From a virus (taxonomy: Duplodnaviria; Heunggongvirae; Uroviricota; Caudoviricetes): a stretch of 46,140 bases of DNA. The notes below the pieces were generated by a model that saw nothing but the letters and a program-made list of their open reading frames with translations, was not told the origin of the DNA and did not search any database. The position numbers and the translations under genes are program-made. The DNA lies in IMG/VR virus record IMGVR_UViG_2693429508_000014, positions 1-46,140 of that record. One strand, 5' to 3'. Positions within the stretch are counted from its first letter, which is position 1, and the number at the start of each line of letters is the position of its first letter. Positions 1 to 11,216 of this stretch are shown here, piece by piece.

Positions 1-1056
1 TTACAAATGCTGATTATTGAGTTTTATTGTCTGTAGTGCGTTTTTATCGCCACTATTTTTGGTGTAAATACGATCTAATGGATTGAGCGTTACCGCAGCC
101 TCAAGGTGGTCTGGGGCAAAGTGTGCATATCGCATCGTCATAAGAATCGTACTATGACCTAGTATCTGCTGTAGCACCAAGATATTCCCCCCATTCATCA
201 TAAAGTGGCTTGCAAAGGTATGCCTGAGAACGTGAGTTCGCTGACCTTCCGGCAACTCAATTTTTGCTTTCTTTAGCGCCCAAGTAAAAGCTTCATAGCA
301 ATTTGAAAAGAGACGGCCTCGACGTTTGGGTAACAGCTTCTGGATGTTATCCGAAATCGGGACGGTTCTGTTTTTCTTGCTCTTGGTATTCGTAAATGTG
401 ATCCGTCCCGGTAAAACCTGAGACTGTGTTAATTTTTCAGCCTCACTCCATCTGGCCCCAGTCGCCAGACATACACGAACAACAGAACCAAGATCGGCGT
501 TGCCTGATTCATCGCAAACCGAAAGAAGCCTCTCAATCTCATCTTCATACAGAAATGAGAGTTCGCTTTCACTAACTTTAAAATGGCGCACACCTTCTAA
601 AGGATTTTCACCAGCCCACGCGCCAAGACGCTTTAACTCAGAAAAAACAGCGTGCAAATATGACTGCTCACGATTTACGGTAGCTTCCTTAGTTGGCTTT
701 TTCTTATTAGCACTCCATTCACCTGATAACCGACGCTTCCGGTAAACAGCAAACATATTGCGGTCAAATTCTGAAACGAGCGGATCTCCCATCCTTTCGC
801 AAACAGCCTTCAACTTAGCCTGCCGTTCTTCACCCGTAGTCAATGTTTTACCGTGCATCTCGTACCAAATATCAACAAGCTCAGACAATCGTTTTGAACT
901 ATTAACCACTGAAACATCGGCATGCACCATCAATCGGCGCTCATGAGAAAGCGCCTCACCTTTTGTAGCAAACTGTCTACGAATACGCCTTCCGCTTGCC
1001 CCATATGGATAACATTCACAAAGCCACTTTCCTGATGCGAGTCGCCGAACTGTCAT
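1..1056 (-). CDS. int: Tyrosine integrase, P2 Int family
   Basis: 351-aa ORF. C-terminal catalytic region with HxLRHTFAS...MxYAHF motifs (R-H-R-Y recombinase signature) and N-terminal GKRIRRQF-type segment resembling P2 Int. The window begins exactly at its stop codon. Confidence 0.9.
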   Translation of the reverse strand: MTVRRLASGKWLCECYPYGASGRRIRRQFATKGEALSHERRLMVHADVSVVNSSKRLSELVDIWYEMHGKTLTTGEERQAKLKAVCERMGDPLVSEFDRNMFAVYRKRRLSGEWSANKKKPTKEATVNREQSYLHAVFSELKRLGAWAGENPLEGVRHFKVSESELSFLYEDEIERLLSVCDESGNADLGSVVRVCLATGARWSEAEKLTQSQVLPGRITFTNTKSKKNRTVPISDNIQKLLPKRRGRLFSNCYEAFTWALKKAKIELPEGQRTHVLRHTFASHFMMNGGNILVLQQILGHSTILMTMRYAHFAPDHLEAAVTLNPLDRIYTKNSGDKNALQTIKLNNQHL

Positions 1057-2109: not shown

Positions 2110-2493
2110 TTACTTTTTCTTTTCGTGATAATCCCCGCCCGCTACACGGTTACTGTTGCCTGATACGTTGACAGAAACAGAAGCAGAACTACCGGCTGTA
2201 AGAGCTGCCAATGCTGCAGCTTTAACGGCCAATGGAGCAGAACGATAAAGCGACAAAAGCTCACTTTCATCATTACTCAATGCCGACATAGAGCGCTCAC
2301 CAACCACAACATATTGAATATCAAGACCAAACTTGGACAAAAGAGCTAAGTAAACAGAATCAGGGGAACTATCGCCCTTTTCATATTTGATCTGAGTCCA
2401 CTTTTTAACCCCTCCCATATCCCCCATAGCAGCCTGACTCAACCCTAGCCTTTCTCTTTCTTCCTTCAAACGCGCGCCAATTGATATTTTCAC
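2110..2493 (-). CDS. Prophage immunity repressor, XRE-type HTH (C/CI-like)
   Basis: N-terminal HTH ISIGARLKEERERLGLSQAAMG. Probable GTG start at 2493 with AAGGGG Shine-Dalgarno (the ORF track's longer N-terminus uses an upstream alternative start). Divergent from the cox-like genes. No S24 peptidase-like C-terminal domain seen. Confidence 0.7.
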   Translation of the reverse strand: MKISIGARLKEERERLGLSQAAMGDMGGVKKWTQIKYEKGDSSPDSVYLALLSKFGLDIQYVVVGERSMSALSNDESELLSLYRSAPLAVKAAALAALTAGSSASVSVNVSGNSNRVAGGDYHEKKK

Positions 2494-2570
2494 ACCAAAC
2501 CCCTTGACAGGTGTGTTTTTCCACACCACAATATTATTAACGAACTGATAGAGGATCACAATATATCACT
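2494..2570. promoter_or_regulatory. Divergent lysis-lysogeny switch region between the repressor and the rightward early genes
   Basis: Intergenic region between divergently oriented repressor and early operon. TTGACA at 2504-2509 with a weak -10-like CACAAT 17 nt downstream. Operators not resolved. Confidence 0.3.
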
Positions 2571-4422: not shown

Positions 4423-5055
4423 ATGATTAATCCGACACTCACCCTCAAAGATAAAGCCCTTGCGGGCGCAATGTTTTTACGCAACTACGCCGCAATGATG
4501 GCTGACACTGACAACCCGATGATGGTGCTGTCAGTGGAGCCTCACCTTATCGCCGCAGACGCAATTGAACAGGTGGTACAGGAAAACACCTGTCTGAGAA
4601 ATCAGCTTGCCACCCTTCAGACAGCAGCTGACCCGGCAAAGGAAAGTGCTGAACACACCTGCCACACCACATTCATCAAAGGGACCCGCGTATGTCTGAA
4701 AAACAGTCCGCAGCAACGCGGAACGGTCGTTGACACCCGCACCAGTAGCCCCGCCATTGACCGGGTTTTCGTCCGTTTCGATTCCCCCTTCGAGGAAGAC
4801 CGCTGGGTAAAGACCAGAAACCTGGAAATAACCCCGACAAATGAAGCTGATTATCCCTGCGCGACACCGCAAAAACCGGATGAAGCCAGGGGGAAAGCCG
4901 GAGCGGGCAGCAAGGGCGGCATACCGTCGCCTGCTGAAGGGGGACCGGTCACACGTGCGACGACTGGAGCGGGTACCGCCCGCCCGCGTCATCAACGTCA
5001 TGTACCGTTACCGGCTGTTAAGTCTGGACGAAGGCCGGACATGGGTACTGCTTAA
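4423..5055 (+). CDS. Hypothetical early protein; 3' end uncertain (probably ends or changes frame near 4830-4880)
   Basis: 210-aa ORF whose last ~65 residues are low-complexity G/A/P/R-rich, typical of an out-of-frame read. A protein-like alternative frame overlaps (4880..5098). Confidence 0.4.
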   Translation: MINPTLTLKDKALAGAMFLRNYAAMMADTDNPMMVLSVEPHLIAADAIEQVVQENTCLRNQLATLQTAADPAKESAEHTCHTTFIKGTRVCLKNSPQQRGTVVDTRTSSPAIDRVFVRFDSPFEEDRWVKTRNLEITPTNEADYPCATPQKPDEARGKAGAGSKGGIPSPAEGGPVTRATTGAGTARPRHQRHVPLPAVKSGRRPDMGTA

Positions 5056-5098
5056 CCATAACGAATACGTGAAGAGGATAAGACGATGTTACAGATGA
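4880..5098 (+). CDS. Hypothetical small basic protein (start uncertain)
   Basis: Protein-like frame ...RLERVPPARVINVMYRYRLLSLDEGRTWVLLNHNEYVKR. Its stop overlaps the downstream ATG (translational coupling). Confidence 0.35.
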   Translation: MKPGGKPERAARAAYRRLLKGDRSHVRRLERVPPARVINVMYRYRLLSLDEGRTWVLLNHNEYVKRIRRCYR

Positions 5099-5616
5099 AA
5101 TTTAAGCCCTGCTTTATTGACGCATTCCGCAACGGACGCAAGACCACATCCCTTCGCCCGACGGGGTTTGATTGCTACCAGGCGGGCCAGGAGTCAGCAG
5201 AATATTTTCATGAAGACACCCTGACCCGCAACATCGTTCTTCCCGATTACAGCGCCGGCGGTACCCTGGTTTTTGAGGAGGGAACCACATTTACCCGCGC
5301 ATCAGACTTTGCCGGACTCCTGAAAAGACAGCCCTACCGGCAGTATGACAACATTCATCTGGTCACAGAAAACAAGAACGGCGAAACCGTGCCGTTCGCC
5401 GTGGCCTTCATTGCCGATATCGGTGTAATACAGGGCCGCCAGATAACCGATGAAGTGGCCGTCAGGGACGGCTTTAACCCTGAAAACCATCCCCGCGACG
5501 AACTCTTTGCATTCATGCGGGACACCTGCCACATAGAAAACCCCAAAAACGAAACCTACTGGCGGTACACCTTCACCCACATCGTGATGTTGTCGCAGTG
5601 GAGGGCTGACGCATGA
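5086..5616 (+). CDS. ASCH-domain (PUA-like fold) protein
   Basis: N-terminus KFKPCFIDAFRNGRKTTSLRP matches the ASCH pattern F...I..G.KT.T.R as recalled. Translationally coupled to neighbours. Confidence 0.5.
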   Translation: MLQMKFKPCFIDAFRNGRKTTSLRPTGFDCYQAGQESAEYFHEDTLTRNIVLPDYSAGGTLVFEEGTTFTRASDFAGLLKRQPYRQYDNIHLVTENKNGETVPFAVAFIADIGVIQGRQITDEVAVRDGFNPENHPRDELFAFMRDTCHIENPKNETYWRYTFTHIVMLSQWRADA

Positions 5617-5852
5617 AACCCGCCATTATCTGCATTCTGTGCGAGAGCACTGTCACCGGCGACCATTACCGCATCAGGGAACGCCACATCAACCCTGACC
5701 GTTCGCTGCTGGACAACATCACCGGCCCGGATGATGAACGCGTGATCTGCCTGAACGACGGCTCGCAGTTACGCGTGCGCAATATCCGGCGCGAAATCAC
5801 GCTCGAACCCACCCCATTCACACGCGGGAAAAAACCGGAGAGTGACGCATGA
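5613..5852 (+). CDS. Hypothetical protein
   Basis: 79-aa ORF with ATGA overlaps on both sides. Confidence 0.45.
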   Translation: MKPAIICILCESTVTGDHYRIRERHINPDRSLLDNITGPDDERVICLNDGSQLRVRNIRREITLEPTPFTRGKKPESDA

Positions 5853-6811
5853 AAGGTATTCTGAACCAGCGCTCACCGCTCAAATGGGCGGGCGGCAAAT
5901 TCAGTATCATGCCGCAGCTGCGCGAATATTTACCCAAAGCCGCCTGCCTGATCGAACCCTTCGTGGGCGGCGGCTCGGTCTTCATGAACACGGATTATGA
6001 CTATTACGTATTGTGTGACAGCAACCCCACGCTGATTAATTTCTACCAGCAACTGACGACCAACACCACGGAATTAATGGATCGTGCATGGTCGCTCTTT
6101 AAGGATGGCGGCACACCGGAAGCCTACAAACGCCATCGCGGGGCATTTAACACCATCGCGCTGGCCACCGACAGATTACGCGGCGAATCCCTGGAATGGG
6201 CAGCGCTGTTTCTGTACCTGAACCGCCATTGCTTTAACGGCCTGTACCGCACCAACCAAAAAGGCGAATTCAATGTGCCATTCGGCAAACACCGCATGCC
6301 TTATTTCCCCTGCCAGGAAATGCGCCTGTTTGCTGATAAAGCCAACGAGACCCGGACCCGCTTTATTCACGCGGATTTCCGTACAGCCTTCACAATGCCG
6401 GCTGAGATCCGCCGTTTTTCTTCGGTGCACGACGATATCGCCATTTACTGCGATCCGCCCTACCTGCCACCGGACGGTAAAGAGGCGTTCACTCACTACA
6501 ACGGCCGGGCATTTACCCGCAAAGACCACCGTGACCTTGCGGCGCTCATGATGAACGCCTGGCAGCGTTACGGTATCCGCCCGGTGGTCTCCAACAGTGA
6601 CACCACCGAAACCCGGCAAATCTATTCCTCGTTTGAGCTGCACACCCTGAGCGTTCGCCGCTCTGTTGCTGCCAGCAGCAGCGCACGCCAGCAGGCAAAA
6701 GAGGTAATTGGTGTTTATCCGCCAGCCCATAAAAGCCAGCTCCGGGACGTCAATGTGGGCTGGCCGTCTCCCCTTCACGCTCCACACCCCACCACGGAGA
6801 TCATGCAATGA
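5849..6811 (+). CDS. DNA adenine methyltransferase, Dam family (N6-adenine, D12 class), orphan
   Basis: 320 aa. LKWAGGKF N-terminus, EPFVGGGSVFMN (motif I) and CDPPYLPP (DPPY motif IV), with overall collinearity to E. coli Dam as recalled. No adjacent restriction endonuclease. Confidence 0.9.
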   Translation: MKGILNQRSPLKWAGGKFSIMPQLREYLPKAACLIEPFVGGGSVFMNTDYDYYVLCDSNPTLINFYQQLTTNTTELMDRAWSLFKDGGTPEAYKRHRGAFNTIALATDRLRGESLEWAALFLYLNRHCFNGLYRTNQKGEFNVPFGKHRMPYFPCQEMRLFADKANETRTRFIHADFRTAFTMPAEIRRFSSVHDDIAIYCDPPYLPPDGKEAFTHYNGRAFTRKDHRDLAALMMNAWQRYGIRPVVSNSDTTETRQIYSSFELHTLSVRRSVAASSSARQQAKEVIGVYPPAHKSQLRDVNVGWPSPLHAPHPTTEIMQ

Positions 6812-7119
6812 CCGTTATCTATATCGCCGGCCCCATGACGGGAAAGCCTGATTTCAACCGCACCGCCTTCACCATGACAGCGACCCGCCTGAGGATGCAG
6901 GGCCATACCGTACTCAACCCCGCAACACTCCCTGACGGGCTGAGATACAGGGACTACATGCTTATCGGGAGCGCCATGCTGCACTGTGCCGATGTGATTT
7001 ACCTGCTGGATGGCTGGGAGGACTCGCCGGGGGCAAAAGAGGAACACGCCACCGCCCTGAAACTGAATCTGATCATCTCCACACCAGAAAGCCGTAAGGA
7101 GGCCAAATCATGTTTCTGA
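6808..7119 (+). CDS. DUF4406 / nucleoside 2-deoxyribosyltransferase-like protein
   Basis: 103 aa. N-terminus MTVIYIAGPMTGKPDFNRTAF...VLNPA matches the DUF4406 pattern as recalled. ATGA overlap with the methylase gene. Confidence 0.5.
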   Translation: MTVIYIAGPMTGKPDFNRTAFTMTATRLRMQGHTVLNPATLPDGLRYRDYMLIGSAMLHCADVIYLLDGWEDSPGAKEEHATALKLNLIISTPESRKEAKSCF

Positions 7120-7664
7120 AACCAATGGGGGGACCAGGTAAAGCACCGAAGCACGTCAGTGCATGGACACAACAGGAAGACGAACTGCTTATCTCGCTTT
7201 ATCAGGATCACAGCACATGGCAAATGGCTGAACGACTTCAGCGAACCCGCAGCGCAGTGATGCACCGGATTCTTTTTTTACGTAATCGCGGGTTGATTGG
7301 TCGCAAGAAAAAAGCACCGCTGAGTGCAGAAGCCATCGCCTTTCTCATCAAAAACCGTCACGCAAAAACCGCACGGGAACTGGCCCGGAAGGCGGGATGC
7401 AGCGAGTGCACCGTGAGGTACACACTGCATAAACGGGGTTACAGCCTTAAGAAATGCGGCGAGAGCCACCATTGCACCAGATACAGCGATCGTCTGGCTG
7501 AGCTGGTTACGGAGCTACGCGACAGACGCAACATGACGTTCTGCATAATCGCGAAACACATCAACATCACGATGCAAATGCACATCAGCGATGATACGGC
7601 GTTTCACCTCTACAACCGCCGGACCGCCGCCGACGCCCTGTTGTACGAACTGCTGCCGAACTGA
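7110..7664 (+). CDS. DNA-binding protein with GcrA-like / Myb-type HTH
   Basis: 184 aa. WTQQEDELLISLYQDHSTWQMAERLQRTRSAVMHRILFL resembles the GcrA N-terminal HTH. A second HTH-like segment is TARELARKAGCSECTVRYTL. Overlaps the upstream gene by 10 nt. Confidence 0.45.
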   Translation: MFLKPMGGPGKAPKHVSAWTQQEDELLISLYQDHSTWQMAERLQRTRSAVMHRILFLRNRGLIGRKKKAPLSAEAIAFLIKNRHAKTARELARKAGCSECTVRYTLHKRGYSLKKCGESHHCTRYSDRLAELVTELRDRRNMTFCIIAKHINITMQMHISDDTAFHLYNRRTAADALLYELLPN

Positions 7665-7784
7665 GTGATCATCATGCACACACAAAAAAACCGCTTGCCA
7701 TGTCGCAATCAGTCAGGTTACATTTCCGCTGCACCTCATAAAACGGGTGCCGGGATTGAGACCCCGCTGACAAACATAGCGCAC

Positions 7785-7806
7785 AACCGCGCCAGCGGTT
7801 TTTTTG
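7785..7806 (+). terminator. Putative rho-independent terminator of the early operon
   Basis: AACCGC-GCCA-GCGGTT hairpin followed by a T7 run. Confidence 0.4.
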
Positions 7807-7984
7807 TGCGTACTGTATCGCCACATCTTTTTCGCACACGAATTATGGTGGGGCGTACGGGGCCGACTTCGGTCGGGCCGGGTTCTATGTTTGCCGGTAG
7901 TCTCAACCCTGTACGTCTCGCCACCCCGAGTTTGAGACCTCTGGATGGTGAGTTTTCAAAACTTACACACATAGAGGCCACATC

Positions 7985-8212
7985 ATGGCAAACCGCAAAC
8001 AACAGCGCGCATACGCTGCGCGTCGTCACATCCAGACTGAAATCAACCGCAGACTTTTCCGCGCCTTCCGCGTCGCGCATATCATGCACATCAATATGCT
8101 GCATGAGCACAGTCACGCACTGTCAAACACCTATTCCGCCGCTGTTTTCAGCTATCTGGCGGATGATCTGCGCGGGCTGCGGGACCTCATTAACCAGCAC
8201 TACCACCACTAA
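7985..8212 (+). CDS. Hypothetical small protein (weak call)
   Basis: 75-aa ORF with GAGG upstream; lies in an otherwise non-coding 616-bp region. Confidence 0.25.
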   Translation: MANRKQQRAYAARRHIQTEINRRLFRAFRVAHIMHINMLHEHSHALSNTYSAAVFSYLADDLRGLRDLINQHYHH

Positions 8213-8280
8213 TCAACATCCCGAAGCCATCCCGCATCCATACGCGGGAGGCTTCCGCACGTCCGTTTCCGGAGGTTCTC

Positions 8281-8694
8281 ATGAAGAGCGTTAAGGGACT
8301 TTCAGATATTCAGGATTTTTTTAACTGGATGTGGGCGGTGGATCCACGCCTCGCTTCCCGTCTCAATGACCTGCACGACTATTACCGCCGCGCCTGTAAA
8401 CAGGCCGCCAGCAGCGCCACCACATACGGTGACTTTTCCTTCACCGTTGACGACCGTTACCGCGTGGACGTCAGAGACCAGAACAACAGCCTGGAGCTGG
8501 GCCTGTTCCACATCAACGGACTCGACAGCAGTGTTATCAGCTGGTCATCGTCAGAAATGGTGCTCGTTCTGGAAATGACCACCCACAGCGTGGTCGTGAA
8601 AGGGATTAAAACGGCAGAAGACTTTATCGCTGAATACCAGCGTCTTCTTGTGCTGTACCGGGCTGCATTTCAGAAGGCAACAGCAGGGGAGTAA
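8281..8694 (+). CDS. Hypothetical protein upstream of the replication gene
   Basis: 137-aa ORF with GGAGG Shine-Dalgarno, immediately upstream of the gpA-like gene. Confidence 0.5.
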   Translation: MKSVKGLSDIQDFFNWMWAVDPRLASRLNDLHDYYRRACKQAASSATTYGDFSFTVDDRYRVDVRDQNNSLELGLFHINGLDSSVISWSSSEMVLVLEMTTHSVVVKGIKTAEDFIAEYQRLLVLYRAAFQKATAGE

Positions 8695-8699
8695 GCGGA

Positions 8700-11216
8700 A
8701 TGAGCCATCACAACACACACCTGGCGTACCCGTGGAATGCCCCGCTGCCGGTTATTGATCCTGAGACGTTCGGCAGAGCGTTACCGCAGAAGCCAACCGC
8801 ATTACAACGGGCAATCCGGGACTACCTCACCGAAGACATTCGCACTGAGGCCCGGCTGGATGAAGAAACCGTGGTCTTCCTGACAACCACGGACAAAGGC
8901 AAACAAATTAATTCACACCTTCACCGGGACGAAGAGCGGCAGACAAGGTTGGATAAGCTGGCACGACACAGACGCGAAAATCCGCCAACGGAGGTATCGG
9001 AAGCGATAGCCGAACTTCGCGCCCTGCCACCGTTTCTTGCCAGCGTGCTGATCCGCGATCTGGCACGCCTGAACCGGAAACAGCAAAGCGCCCGCAGCAA
9101 AGGTGTAAAAAACAATAGCGCATACGTGGCCGATAACTTCGTTCGCCGTGGACTGCGCGCGCGCCTGAAACGTATCGAACGGGTTAACGACCGCTTTGCA
9201 ACGCCGGCATTCAAATCCAGTGTCATACGCCATCGCCTTGAAGAGCTGCTCATGCTGCCGCAACTCAGCCGCGACAAGATCCAGCGCATCGCCACACTGA
9301 CTGCGCAGTTCTTTACCGCAGAATTTGAACGCATATGTGATGAAGTTCCTGAACAGACCGGAAAGAATAATGACAGCCCGGTTATCTGGCTGCTGGCCTA
9401 CCAGAAGATGGCACGCATAGCCTTAACGCTGGGCGTGATCCCGCCATACTGGCCGGAACTCGAAATCAGGCACAACCGACGCACACCGCCGGACCCTGAA
9501 CTGATACCGGGTGCGGTACTGCGCATCACCTGCGCGACCTGGTGGAACAACCAGTTACGCCACATCGCCGATCTCTGGCGGGAGGAGTTACTGCGTGCCG
9601 CCGGCAGAGTGTCACGTAAACAATCCCCTTATATCAGCCATGAATCACTACTGGAGTTTCGCGAGAAGCGCCAGCGCACCCGTGATTTTCTCAAAAGCTG
9701 GGATATTGAAAACGAAGACGGCGAGCGCCTGAGTCTGGAGGAAGTGTACTGGGCGGGCCCGGGGAATCCACGCAACCGCCGCAATGAAATGATGGTCTGC
9801 GTCAGAGGGATGGAGATGGTAGCCGAATTGCGGGGTGACGTCGCATTCTTCATCACGGTAACAGCCCCTTCCCGCTTTCACAGCGTGAACGAAGACGGCA
9901 GCCTGAACCCGAAATACAACGGTGCCACTGTACGCGATACCAGTGATTATCTGGTTTACGACTTCTTCGCAGCCGTAAGAAAAAAAATCAAAAAAGAGGG
10001 GCTGGGCTGGTACGGCGTGCGAACCGCTGAGCCACACCATGACGGCACGCCACACTGGCATATGCTGGTATTCACGTCCCCTGAGAACGCAGAGCGCATC
10101 ATCGAAATTATGCGCGACGCAGCGATTAAATCAGATCGCCACGAACTGGGGGACGATATTTCGCCGCGCTTTGAATGCGAGAAGATAGATCCGGAAAAAG
10201 GGTCGCCGGCAAGCTATATCGCAACCTATATCGGTAAGAACCTGGACGCCAGCGCCTTCCACAACAATGATCCGAAAACCGGAAAACCTTACGTCGATAA
10301 GGAATCCGGGAAAACCATGGCGGAAACCGTGGAGAACGCCATTGCATGGGCGAGCCTTCACCGCATACGTCAGTTCCAGTTTTTCGGCATTCCGCCCCGC
10401 CAGGTGTGGCGAGAACTCCGCCGCCTTGCAAGCCAGATGGAGCGCAACCCGGCATCACCGAAGCGACTCGATCATGGAGATATTGACGCCATTATGGCCG
10501 CCGCAGACGTGGGGTGTTTTGCCACCTACATCATGAAACAGGGTGGCGTGCTTATTCCACGCAACCAGTATCTGGTCCGCACCGCATACAAAACCGCAGA
10601 CGAAGCTAATGACTACGGCGAATTCCCGCAGCGCATCTACGGAATTTGCGCCCCGTCACTCGGGGAACGGTACACCATCTGCACCCATCCGGATGAGTGG
10701 AAACTGGTCAGAAAAGAATCTGACGCCGACAACAGCACGGACGAGGGTTTTGACCTTCGGGGCGGCTTCGCCGCACCTTGGACTCGTGGCAATAACTGTC
10801 CCGGTGACGAAAAAACAGCCGGAACCGGCACAGAAAACAGGCAGCGTGGGTCGCGGCTGACGCTTCCGGAAAGCGGCCTGGCGCACTGGTTGCAGACGTT
10901 AACCCGTCACGAGCGGAAACAGCTCATCAGACAGCTTAAAAATCAGCCGCCCACCACGGATACCGGACAAAATAACACCAGACCAGCATCAGACACCCCT
11001 GTCAGGGTGGAGGTTGTCGTGCCTGTCGACACCACGACCATCGCACAAATCACCCGCGAACTCGACGCGCTGGGTGTGCAGCTGCCTGACGCAGCCATTA
11101 TTTCCGTGAGTAACGGTGCCCGCGTTCGCCCGGGCGACGGGCGTATCGCGTACTGGAGCGCCACAACCCGCCGTATCGTCATCACACAGGAGTCGTCAGC
11201 GGAGGTAAGATCATGA
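8700..11216 (+). CDS. Replication initiation protein, P2 gpA-like rolling-circle (HUH) endonuclease
   Basis: 838 aa. Motifs FITVTAPSRFH, YGVRTAEPHHDGTPHWHMLVF (HUH motif) and SYIATYIGKNLD match P2 gpA as recalled. Confidence 0.9.
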   Translation: MSHHNTHLAYPWNAPLPVIDPETFGRALPQKPTALQRAIRDYLTEDIRTEARLDEETVVFLTTTDKGKQINSHLHRDEERQTRLDKLARHRRENPPTEVSEAIAELRALPPFLASVLIRDLARLNRKQQSARSKGVKNNSAYVADNFVRRGLRARLKRIERVNDRFATPAFKSSVIRHRLEELLMLPQLSRDKIQRIATLTAQFFTAEFERICDEVPEQTGKNNDSPVIWLLAYQKMARIALTLGVIPPYWPELEIRHNRRTPPDPELIPGAVLRITCATWWNNQLRHIADLWREELLRAAGRVSRKQSPYISHESLLEFREKRQRTRDFLKSWDIENEDGERLSLEEVYWAGPGNPRNRRNEMMVCVRGMEMVAELRGDVAFFITVTAPSRFHSVNEDGSLNPKYNGATVRDTSDYLVYDFFAAVRKKIKKEGLGWYGVRTAEPHHDGTPHWHMLVFTSPENAERIIEIMRDAAIKSDRHELGDDISPRFECEKIDPEKGSPASYIATYIGKNLDASAFHNNDPKTGKPYVDKESGKTMAETVENAIAWASLHRIRQFQFFGIPPRQVWRELRRLASQMERNPASPKRLDHGDIDAIMAAADVGCFATYIMKQGGVLIPRNQYLVRTAYKTADEANDYGEFPQRIYGICAPSLGERYTICTHPDEWKLVRKESDADNSTDEGFDLRGGFAAPWTRGNNCPGDEKTAGTGTENRQRGSRLTLPESGLAHWLQTLTRHERKQLIRQLKNQPPTTDTGQNNTRPASDTPVRVEVVVPVDTTTIAQITRELDALGVQLPDAAIISVSNGARVRPGDGRIAYWSATTRRIVITQESSAEVRS

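Follow-up and report, generated by a model that had tools for sequence, protein, structure and literature searches.

The early region of a P2-family prophage of the P88 (Xuanwuvirus) type, which occupies the window analyzed here (46,140 nt; IMG/VR record IMGVR_UViG_2693429508_000014), contains an open reading frame (ORF 7110–7664, + strand) whose 184-aa product is predicted to consist mainly of three tandem helix-turn-helix (HTH) domains, and which we call the triple-HTH protein. We consider it probable that this is an accessory, sequence-specific multi-HTH DNA-binding protein, most plausibly an early transcription regulator of the kind grouped in PHROG 323. An initial annotation had presented the same ORF as a GcrA-like, methylation-sensing transcription factor coupled to a phage Dam methylase; its coordinates agree exactly with the ORF list and one of its domains does resemble GcrA in fold, but methylation sensing is not supported.

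We regard ORF 7110–7664 as a real, conserved gene because full-length relatives of its product, at 30–99% identity, are spread over many prophages. A word-indexed search returned 37 close homologs (55–99% identity), mostly from Escherichia coli where the source was named, and an exhaustive HMMER profile search retrieved 2353 related proteins; scanning a set of genome contigs with the alignment of close relatives yielded no further relative. Copies with at least 98% identity were found in 5 out of 5426 complete E. coli genomes; RefSeq names the E. coli copies "DNA-binding protein" or "SANT/Myb-like DNA-binding domain-containing protein" and, given these names and PHROG 323, the protein family is already recognized generically. 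The product is strongly basic, with an isoelectric point of 9.98 and 32 Lys plus Arg versus 17 Asp plus Glu.

An AlphaFold2 model, built with an alignment of 23 sequences, contains nine helices that form three HTH triplets, plus a C-terminal helix (Table 1). Its predicted local distance difference test score (pLDDT) was 81.1 and its predicted template modeling score (pTM) 0.43, a value that would fit domains arranged as beads on a string. With at least two three-helix HTH modules joined by short linkers, the protein belongs to the tandem-HTH class, which is an architectural class and not a homology family. The initial annotation described only the N-terminal HTH, which is present, and overlooked the two further HTH domains of the same protein. 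The motif that it quoted is essentially there (W19-x3-E23-D24-E25-L26-L27-x2-L30-x6-W37-x2-A40-x2-L43-x-R45-T46-x2-A49-V50-x2-R53-x3-L57), save for a one-residue slip, since the sequence reads EDELL where EED.LL had been given.

Conservation was evaluated in an alignment of 23 close relatives and in a broad alignment of 20 distant relatives of around 180 aa (29–50% identity), including homologs from Mu-like prophages, which keep the same architecture. Residues W19, D24, R45, K115, G117, D127, R137, and Y168 are invariant in the broad alignment. Regarding the aromatic core typical of Myb domains, W19 is thus invariant, an aromatic residue occupies position 31 in 19 of 20 broad-family members, and W37 is variable (R, H, A or K in relatives). 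The recognition-helix positions change strongly among family members over a fixed framework (W19, R45, R53); this is the pattern expected if sequence specificity is diversifying, and would imply that the protein has different targets in different phages. A candidate zinc site (C97/C116/H120), fixed in the close relatives, was rejected for being unconserved in the broad family.

All the Pfam and NCBIfam matches of the protein are of the HTH type and under the curated cut-offs, and they cover the three domains. Domain 1 (residues 18–53) matched Myb_DNA-bind_6 (18.2 bits; cut-off 22.9) and Myb_DNA-binding (16.7 bits; cut-off 24.4). The Myb/SANT families (PF00249, PF13921), for which the query is sub-threshold, matched 17 or 18 of the 23 relatives at E ≤ 1, with a best E-value of 6.4e-6. 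Domain 2 matched HTH_11 (E = 1.1e-4, residues 76–103) as well as HTH_23 and a Tc3-type HTH, and domain 3 showed a weak match to Sigma70_r4 (residues 135–154). A significant match was obtained to PHROG 323, labeled "transcriptional regulator, D5-like" (E = 8.5e-27, 95.5 bits; residues 4–174 against profile positions 82–248 of 319).

Structural comparisons pointed in the same direction. The best Foldseek matches of the whole model in the PDB were Cbp2 (2LVS, E = 0.013), also the best PDB match by sequence profile (E = 0.049), and the bipartite domain of Tc3 (1U78, E = 0.023), with tandem engrailed homeodomains, Mos1 and Pax among the other top matches. Matches in BFVD were phage multi-HTH proteins; among them were a "D5 protein" from a Vibrio phage and proteins in which an HTH array is joined to a homing endonuclease. 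Many of the HMMER relatives contain 4–12 copies of the HTH repeat, including proteins of 400–800 aa (P0160, P0171–P0176, P0183, P0196), and some of the long relatives carry an N-terminal HNH_3 or helicase domain ahead of the repeats. Fusion of the array to homing endonucleases, HNH or helicase domains marks it as a general DNA-targeting module of phages.

We propose that the gene would be transcribed from the early lytic promoter of this P88-like (Xuanwuvirus, P2-family) prophage, to yield a stand-alone basic protein with three tandem three-helix HTH modules on short basic linkers, flanked by a conserved arm and tail. The most likely mode of binding would be that of a single molecule on a DNA site that is extended and asymmetric, each HTH module placing its recognition helix into successive major grooves, by analogy with Myb R2R3, the bipartite domains of Tc3 and Pax, and archaeal Cbp2; its role would most likely be an accessory one, in the early regulation of transcription of genes of the phage or its host. 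DNA binding, its monomeric mode on an extended site and a role in regulation are all inferred. Some points weigh against this reading: every Pfam HTH match of the query falls under the curated thresholds, and the arrangement of the domains relative to each other is not confidently modeled (as indicated by the pTM). Additionally, other DNA-binding roles can be envisaged for a phage protein, such as replication accessory, nucleoid or host takeover, or site protection. Overall, the evidence points to an ordinary case, one more uncharacterized multi-HTH DNA-binding cargo gene of temperate phages.

Table 1. Features of the triple-HTH gene and its surroundings in the window.
Feature	Position	Strand	Evidence or remarks
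Integrase	1–1056	-	
Repressor-like HTH gene	2110–2559	-	
D12-class Dam methyltransferase, two genes upstream of the triple-HTH gene	5849–6811	+	PF02086, 2e-52; TIGR00571, 237.5 bits
DUF4406 (nucleoside 2-deoxyribosyltransferase-like) gene, between Dam and the triple-HTH gene	6808–7119	+	PF14359, 5.7e-30; PHROG 355
Shine-Dalgarno AAGGAGG (strong, consensus)	7096–7102	+	Seven bases 5′ of the ATG; read off the sequence
CDS (coding sequence) of the 184-aa triple-HTH DNA-binding protein (predicted)	7110–7664	+	ATG start, stop codon 7662–7664; ORF list, homologs, PHROG 323
N-terminal arm, residues 1–18, motif LKPMGxPGxxPxH	7110–7163	+	Conserved in close and broad alignments; no regular secondary structure modeled
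Domain 1, residues 19–60, Myb/SANT-like and GcrA-DBD-like (DBD, DNA-binding domain)	7164–7289	+	AlphaFold2 helices 21–31, 36–43, 47–59; hhalign; Pfam Myb sub-threshold
Basic linker, residues 61–70 (GLIGRKKKAP)	7290–7319	+	No helix in model
Domain 2, residues 71–113, three-helix HTH	7320–7448	+	AlphaFold2 helices 73–81, 88–95, 99–108; Pfam HTH matches
Linker, residues 114–126, low confidence, family-invariant K115 and G117	7449–7487	+	pLDDT 63–66; invariant columns
Domain 3, residues 127–168, three-helix HTH	7488–7613	+	AlphaFold2 helices 127–138, 144–154, 161–168; weak Sigma70_r4
C-terminal tail, residues 169–184, motif RxTAxDxxxxELLP	7614–7661	+	Alignments; helix 173–181 modeled, low confidence
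isrK-type small RNA	7731–7805	+	Rfam RF01394, 66.7 bits (gathering score 50)
Terminator-like site with T run, 3′ end of isrK; closes the transcription unit of the triple-HTH gene	7785–7800		
C4 antisense RNA	7841–7928	+	Rfam RF01695, 81.5 bits (gathering score 45)
75-aa "derepression" ORF	7985–8212		PF25738, 25.6 bits, just under threshold
gpA; ogr gene, portal and terminase genes farther on	8700–11216		

The early operon, on the + strand, includes DUF4761, ParE-like and ASCH-like ORFs, Dam, DUF4406 and the triple-HTH gene, the final ORF ahead of the isrK terminator. We found no separate promoter-like site on the + strand between 4123 and 7695, and a promoter-like hexamer pair at 7695–7724, 30 bp past the stop codon of the triple-HTH gene. 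The initial annotation placed this gene immediately downstream of Dam, which is incorrect in that the DUF4406 gene separates them. The Dam and DUF4406 genes overlap by 4 bases, and the latter overlaps the triple-HTH gene by 10 bases; because of these overlaps, the sequence suggests that the three genes constitute a single transcription and translation unit. In P2-like phages, the gene is located among the variable cargo genes of the early operon; in Mu-like phages, it is located in the semi-essential early region. PADLOC gave no link to anti-phage defense, only three weak matches (E 0.004–0.007, 14–15 bits) to HTH segments of CARF and CasR proteins, and its best match for the Dam of the window was "orphan methyltransferase." Nothing bearing on the function of the triple-HTH gene was apparent in the literature on Xuanwuvirus and P88.

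Two other stretches of the early region deserve comment. Region 7718–8212, containing isrK, C4 and the derepression ORF, constitutes a P1 immI-like or Gifsy-1-like module inside a P2-type early operon; phage P88 DNA is 92% identical over this stretch, and a weak match to the c4 a1/b1 target occurs at 7718–7770. The 209-aa ORF at 7665–8294 extends over both RNA genes, isrK and C4, which account for its apparent conservation; we regard this ORF as almost certainly spurious, although some public assemblies call its equivalent (205 aa), with a weak Phage_ASH match. Farther upstream (4423–5098, + strand), two overlapping ORFs compete: 4423–5055, of 210 aa and lacking any Pfam match, and 4841–5098, of 85 aa and with a ParE_like toxin domain (38.6 bits), which the annotation of E. 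coli FDAARGOS_943 lists as a ParE-family toxin and for which an antitoxin partner is not evident.

As alternatives to a transcription regulator, it is unlikely that the triple-HTH protein is a DNA-binding accessory factor of another kind, aiding gpA in rolling-circle replication at the origin or binding host DNA for takeover or nucleoid remodeling. The gene lies close upstream of the gpA replication endonuclease gene in P2-like phages, and in Mu-like prophages its homologs lie between Gam-like and GemA-like ORFs, within a semi-essential early region that holds host-directed functions. The "D5-like" label of PHROG 323, together with the "D5 protein" found in BFVD, also agrees with this possibility; the label derives from the D5 protein of phage T5, a possible analog of the triple-HTH protein. 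Conversely, most P2-like phages replicate without the gene, which was present in only 4 of 41 de-duplicated loci anchored on gpA (see below), and we found no specific similarity to any characterized replication or nucleoid protein.

We also considered that the protein might regulate the adjacent isrK/C4/derepression module, as part of an anti-immunity switch similar to P1 immI, for instance by acting at the promoter-like site that follows its own gene. A homolog of the derepression ORF is found within approximately 1.4 kb 3′ of the gene in the window, as it is in each P2-like locus of sufficient length; the gap between both is around 320 bp, or longer in two loci with an inserted Dam gene (L014 and L084), and scanning with Rfam confirmed isrK and C4 between the two ORFs, both in the window and in each of the eight diverged P2-like loci scanned. 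However, P88 and its relatives keep the module in the absence of the gene, with a lipoprotein gene filling the slot in P88; the one Mu-like locus scanned (L018) contains a homolog of the gene but neither isrK nor C4 within 6 kb; and in L014 the Dam gene sits between the homolog and isrK. In view of these exceptions, the synteny appears attributable to common descent of the P88-like backbone, and we judge a dedicated regulator of this module to be quite unlikely.

The proposal of the initial annotation was that of a GcrA-like reader of N6-methyladenine that binds phage promoters only once these have been methylated by the co-encoded Dam, coupling early transcription to methylation. We examined first the likeness to GcrA on which it was staked, using the DNA-binding domain sequence from PDB entries 7ye1 and 5yiu and an alignment of 28 GcrA sequences, and a fold likeness was indeed found for domain 1, so that the lack of structural similarity to GcrA, which the initial annotation had named as a refutation, does not apply. 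Its profile (residues 14–68) aligned by hhalign to the DNA-binding domain of GcrA with a probability of 71.8% (P = 3.5e-5; 35% identity over 40 columns), versus 9.6 and 1.5% for domains 2 and 3, and the profile of the whole family aligned to GcrA with a probability of 52.5% (E = 1.4e-4; residues 18–71 to GcrA 2–51). Domain 1 is nearer to GcrA than to domains 2 and 3 of the same protein (15.6 and 1.7%). Next after GcrA came the CoREST SANT domain (7.0), an Lrp-type HTH (6.9), a small-terminase HTH (6.8), Tc3 (6.6), sigma-4 (6.3), and Myb (6.2). The fold-level resemblance of domain 1 to the GcrA head is thus real, though not exclusive; the domain belongs to the part of HTH fold space that includes Myb/SANT, the N-terminal domain of GcrA and sigma-4, and is perhaps distantly related to them. 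The authors of the GcrA work also called its DNA-binding domain sigma-4-like (PMC5887438). Likeness to the GcrA head is a fold-level property common to Myb, SANT and sigma-4, and alone is no predictor of methyl reading.

Other searches did not retrieve GcrA. It was absent from the top 50 Foldseek matches of the whole model in the PDB, BLASTP produced no alignment between the protein and the GcrA DNA-binding domain, the query had no match at E ≤ 1 to Pfam GcrA (PF07750, gathering score 26.9 bits), and the 25 families to which most of the 23 family members had matches do not include GcrA. In favor of a methyl reader, repeats of several distant multi-repeat relatives exceed the Pfam GcrA gathering threshold (36–48 bits); they do so beside Myb and sigma-4 matches, so that a PF07750 match in a phage protein can stem from generic HTH repeats and need not indicate GcrA orthology.

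GcrA consists of one DNA-binding domain (residues 1–45), a linker of around 64 residues and a CCCH zinc finger that binds region 2 of sigma-70; recognition-helix residues R33, N34, I37, G38, H41, and R42 read bases and two methyl groups (PMC5887438). In the hhalign register, these six residues correspond to positions 47, 48, 51, 52, 55, and 56 of the triple-HTH protein. Whereas the six reading residues are invariant in the 28 GcrA sequences, their equivalents are hypervariable in the 23 close and 20 distant relatives, and scaffold positions stay fixed between GcrA and the family (W3/W19, T32/T46, K39/R53). Most of the close relatives have H, W or Y at position 52, the equivalent of G38. The GcrA mutations G38Y and G38W, designed to fill the pocket, belong to a set in which every mutation reduced viability and most caused a severe loss of activation from methylated promoters (PMC5887438); on this alignment register, of moderate confidence, the residues at position 52 would resemble those bulky mutants. 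Moreover, the protein has no CCCH sigma-70-interacting domain, since residues 61–184 are modeled as HTH domains 2 and 3, and the broad alignment does not show any conserved cluster of Cys or His residues. The triple-HTH protein is not a member of the GcrA family or a GcrA orthologue, because it lacks a PF07750 match and the zinc-finger domain and its base- and methyl-reading residues are variable; it thus departs from GcrA in every function-related property examined.

The other pillar of a methyl reader is the linkage with Dam; in the window, the Dam, DUF4406 and triple-HTH genes form an end-to-end overlapping series. To evaluate it, we compared the window and 98 other loci, which formed 21 clusters at 90% identity; two of these were frameshifted copies of the window lineage, leaving 19 lineages, 16 P2-like and three Mu-like. 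Dam was within approximately 530 bp of the triple-HTH gene in 9 of the 16 P2-like lineages, in both gene orders: upstream in seven of them, four with DUF4406 in between, and downstream in two. The remaining seven P2-like and all three Mu-like lineages have the gene but no Dam, and one of the latter has DUF4406 upstream. An early impression from a first sample of 16 loci, that Dam was confined to near-identical copies, was overturned by seven diverged lineages with an adjacent Dam.

As a background, we examined P2-like loci anchored on gpA (the best 80 of at least 589 loci, being those most similar to the gpA of the window), which serve as a rough control without phylogenetic correction. After de-duplication, 41 loci contained at least 3 kb upstream of gpA and, of these, 37 lacked the triple-HTH gene. 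Among these 37 loci, 23 (62%) nevertheless had a Dam gene in the 4 kb preceding gpA, so that its adjacency is not more frequent with the gene (9/16) than without it (23/37; odds ratio 0.78, Fisher p = 0.76). In P2-like genomes, this region thus commonly harbors Dam, and the triple-HTH gene occurs beside it at background frequency, which removes the main comparative argument for coupling; a specific linkage to Dam was rejected on this count. As Dam is found right upstream of gpA in around 60% of the sampled P2-like loci, adjacency alone carries no functional information.

Other observations also argue against coupling. The close homologs come from E. coli, whose DNA is already methylated at GATC by the host Dam. 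In the window, GATC is under-represented, with 120 sites versus 177 (mononucleotide model) to 199 (Markov model) expected, and does not cluster at regulatory regions. GcrA binds by preference N6-adenine-methylated sites, a subset of GANTC (PMC5887438), and the methylase found here, a D12 Dam, is not that of these sites. With variable reading residues, no CCCH domain and Dam at background frequency, we consider it very unlikely that the protein couples transcription to phage methylation as initially annotated; if true, it would extend GcrA-type N6-methyladenine readers beyond alphaproteobacteria and their phages, and add a new layer to the timing of phage genes. A narrower version, in which domain 1 is a true, highly diverged homolog of the GcrA head, recruited into a protein of three modules, that at least in the Dam-adjacent lineages (of either gene order) discriminates Dam-methylated from hemimethylated or unmethylated GATC-containing sites through a pocket of different residues, seems to us more improbable still; if true, it would provide enterobacterial P2-like phages with an early switch timed by replication or methylation.

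Several observations concern the methylases themselves. A Dam-family gene within 4 kb upstream of gpA, often directly upstream (gpA-anchored contigs, loci L129–L178), appears to be a common but rarely remarked feature of P2-like early operons. The DUF4406 gene (PHROG 355) accompanies Dam in several P2-like lineages and, in one diverged Mu-like lineage (L097 and L098, at about 5264–5524), lies around 500 bp upstream of the homolog of the triple-HTH gene with no Dam detected. The P88-like contig L014 contains, downstream of this homolog (5329–6348), a different Dam that is 45% identical to that of the window, with a Cys-rich C-terminal extension (CDACGRHGGGYCPDCG) that looks like a zinc ribbon. 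GATC is nearly absent at about 33–41 kb of the window, although the phage encodes a Dam.

Finally, an origin of the protein in the multi-HTH targeting module of phage homing endonucleases, of which it would be a stand-alone remnant or a decoy that, for instance, shields a target site from cleavage, is suggested by BFVD neighbors in which HTH arrays are fused to Vsr-like, LAGLIDADG or other endonucleases and by the HNH_3 domain ahead of the repeats of relative P0183, but is extremely improbable considering that the architecture of around 180 aa, with its own arm and tail and no nuclease remnant, is kept from 30 to 99% identity, and that the gene occupies the same operon slot across P2-like loci and across Mu-like loci, unlike a mobile homing cassette.

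We also compared the protein with known systems. GcrA from Caulobacter crescentus (PF07750; PDB 5YIU, 5YIV, 5YIW, 5YIX) has a compact three-helix HTH like that of domain 1, and to the framework positions listed above can be added the aromatic pair W15/Y31. It differs in having one HTH instead of three and an alphaproteobacterial instead of an enterobacterial host, in reading GANTC methylation sites (PMC5887438) where the neighboring methylase here is a D12 Dam, and in its long disordered linker, CCCH zinc-finger sigma-70-interacting domain and C-terminal basic patch, which have no counterpart here. The only phage GcrA-like genes that we found described in the literature are from phages of Caulobacter and Brucella. 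Protein A1 of coliphage T5 is relevant in this respect, because its 60 N-terminal residues, as predicted, were reported to be structurally like the DNA-binding domain of GcrA (bioRxiv 10.1101/2022.08.27.505566). Set beside the triple-HTH protein by description only, A1 differs in having a single HTH and a putative C-terminal nuclease domain; it shows that GcrA-like HTH heads exist in enterobacterial phages outside any reported methylation-sensing context.

PHROG 323 offers another comparison, with a significant match over most of the protein and the same kind of phage HTH array, even if the triple-HTH protein covers only part of the 319-position profile and the label is an annotation and not a tested function. 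Cbp2, Tc3, the Pax paired domain and Myb R2R3 likewise consist of consecutive three-helix HTH modules with short basic linkers, in their case two modules (three in Myb R1R2R3) versus the three found here. The matches to proteins of the Cbp2 and Tc3 type are statistically weak and do not support common descent or a shared function; as architectural analogs, however, these four systems are likely to be the model for how the triple-HTH protein would bind, as a monomer, to an extended site.

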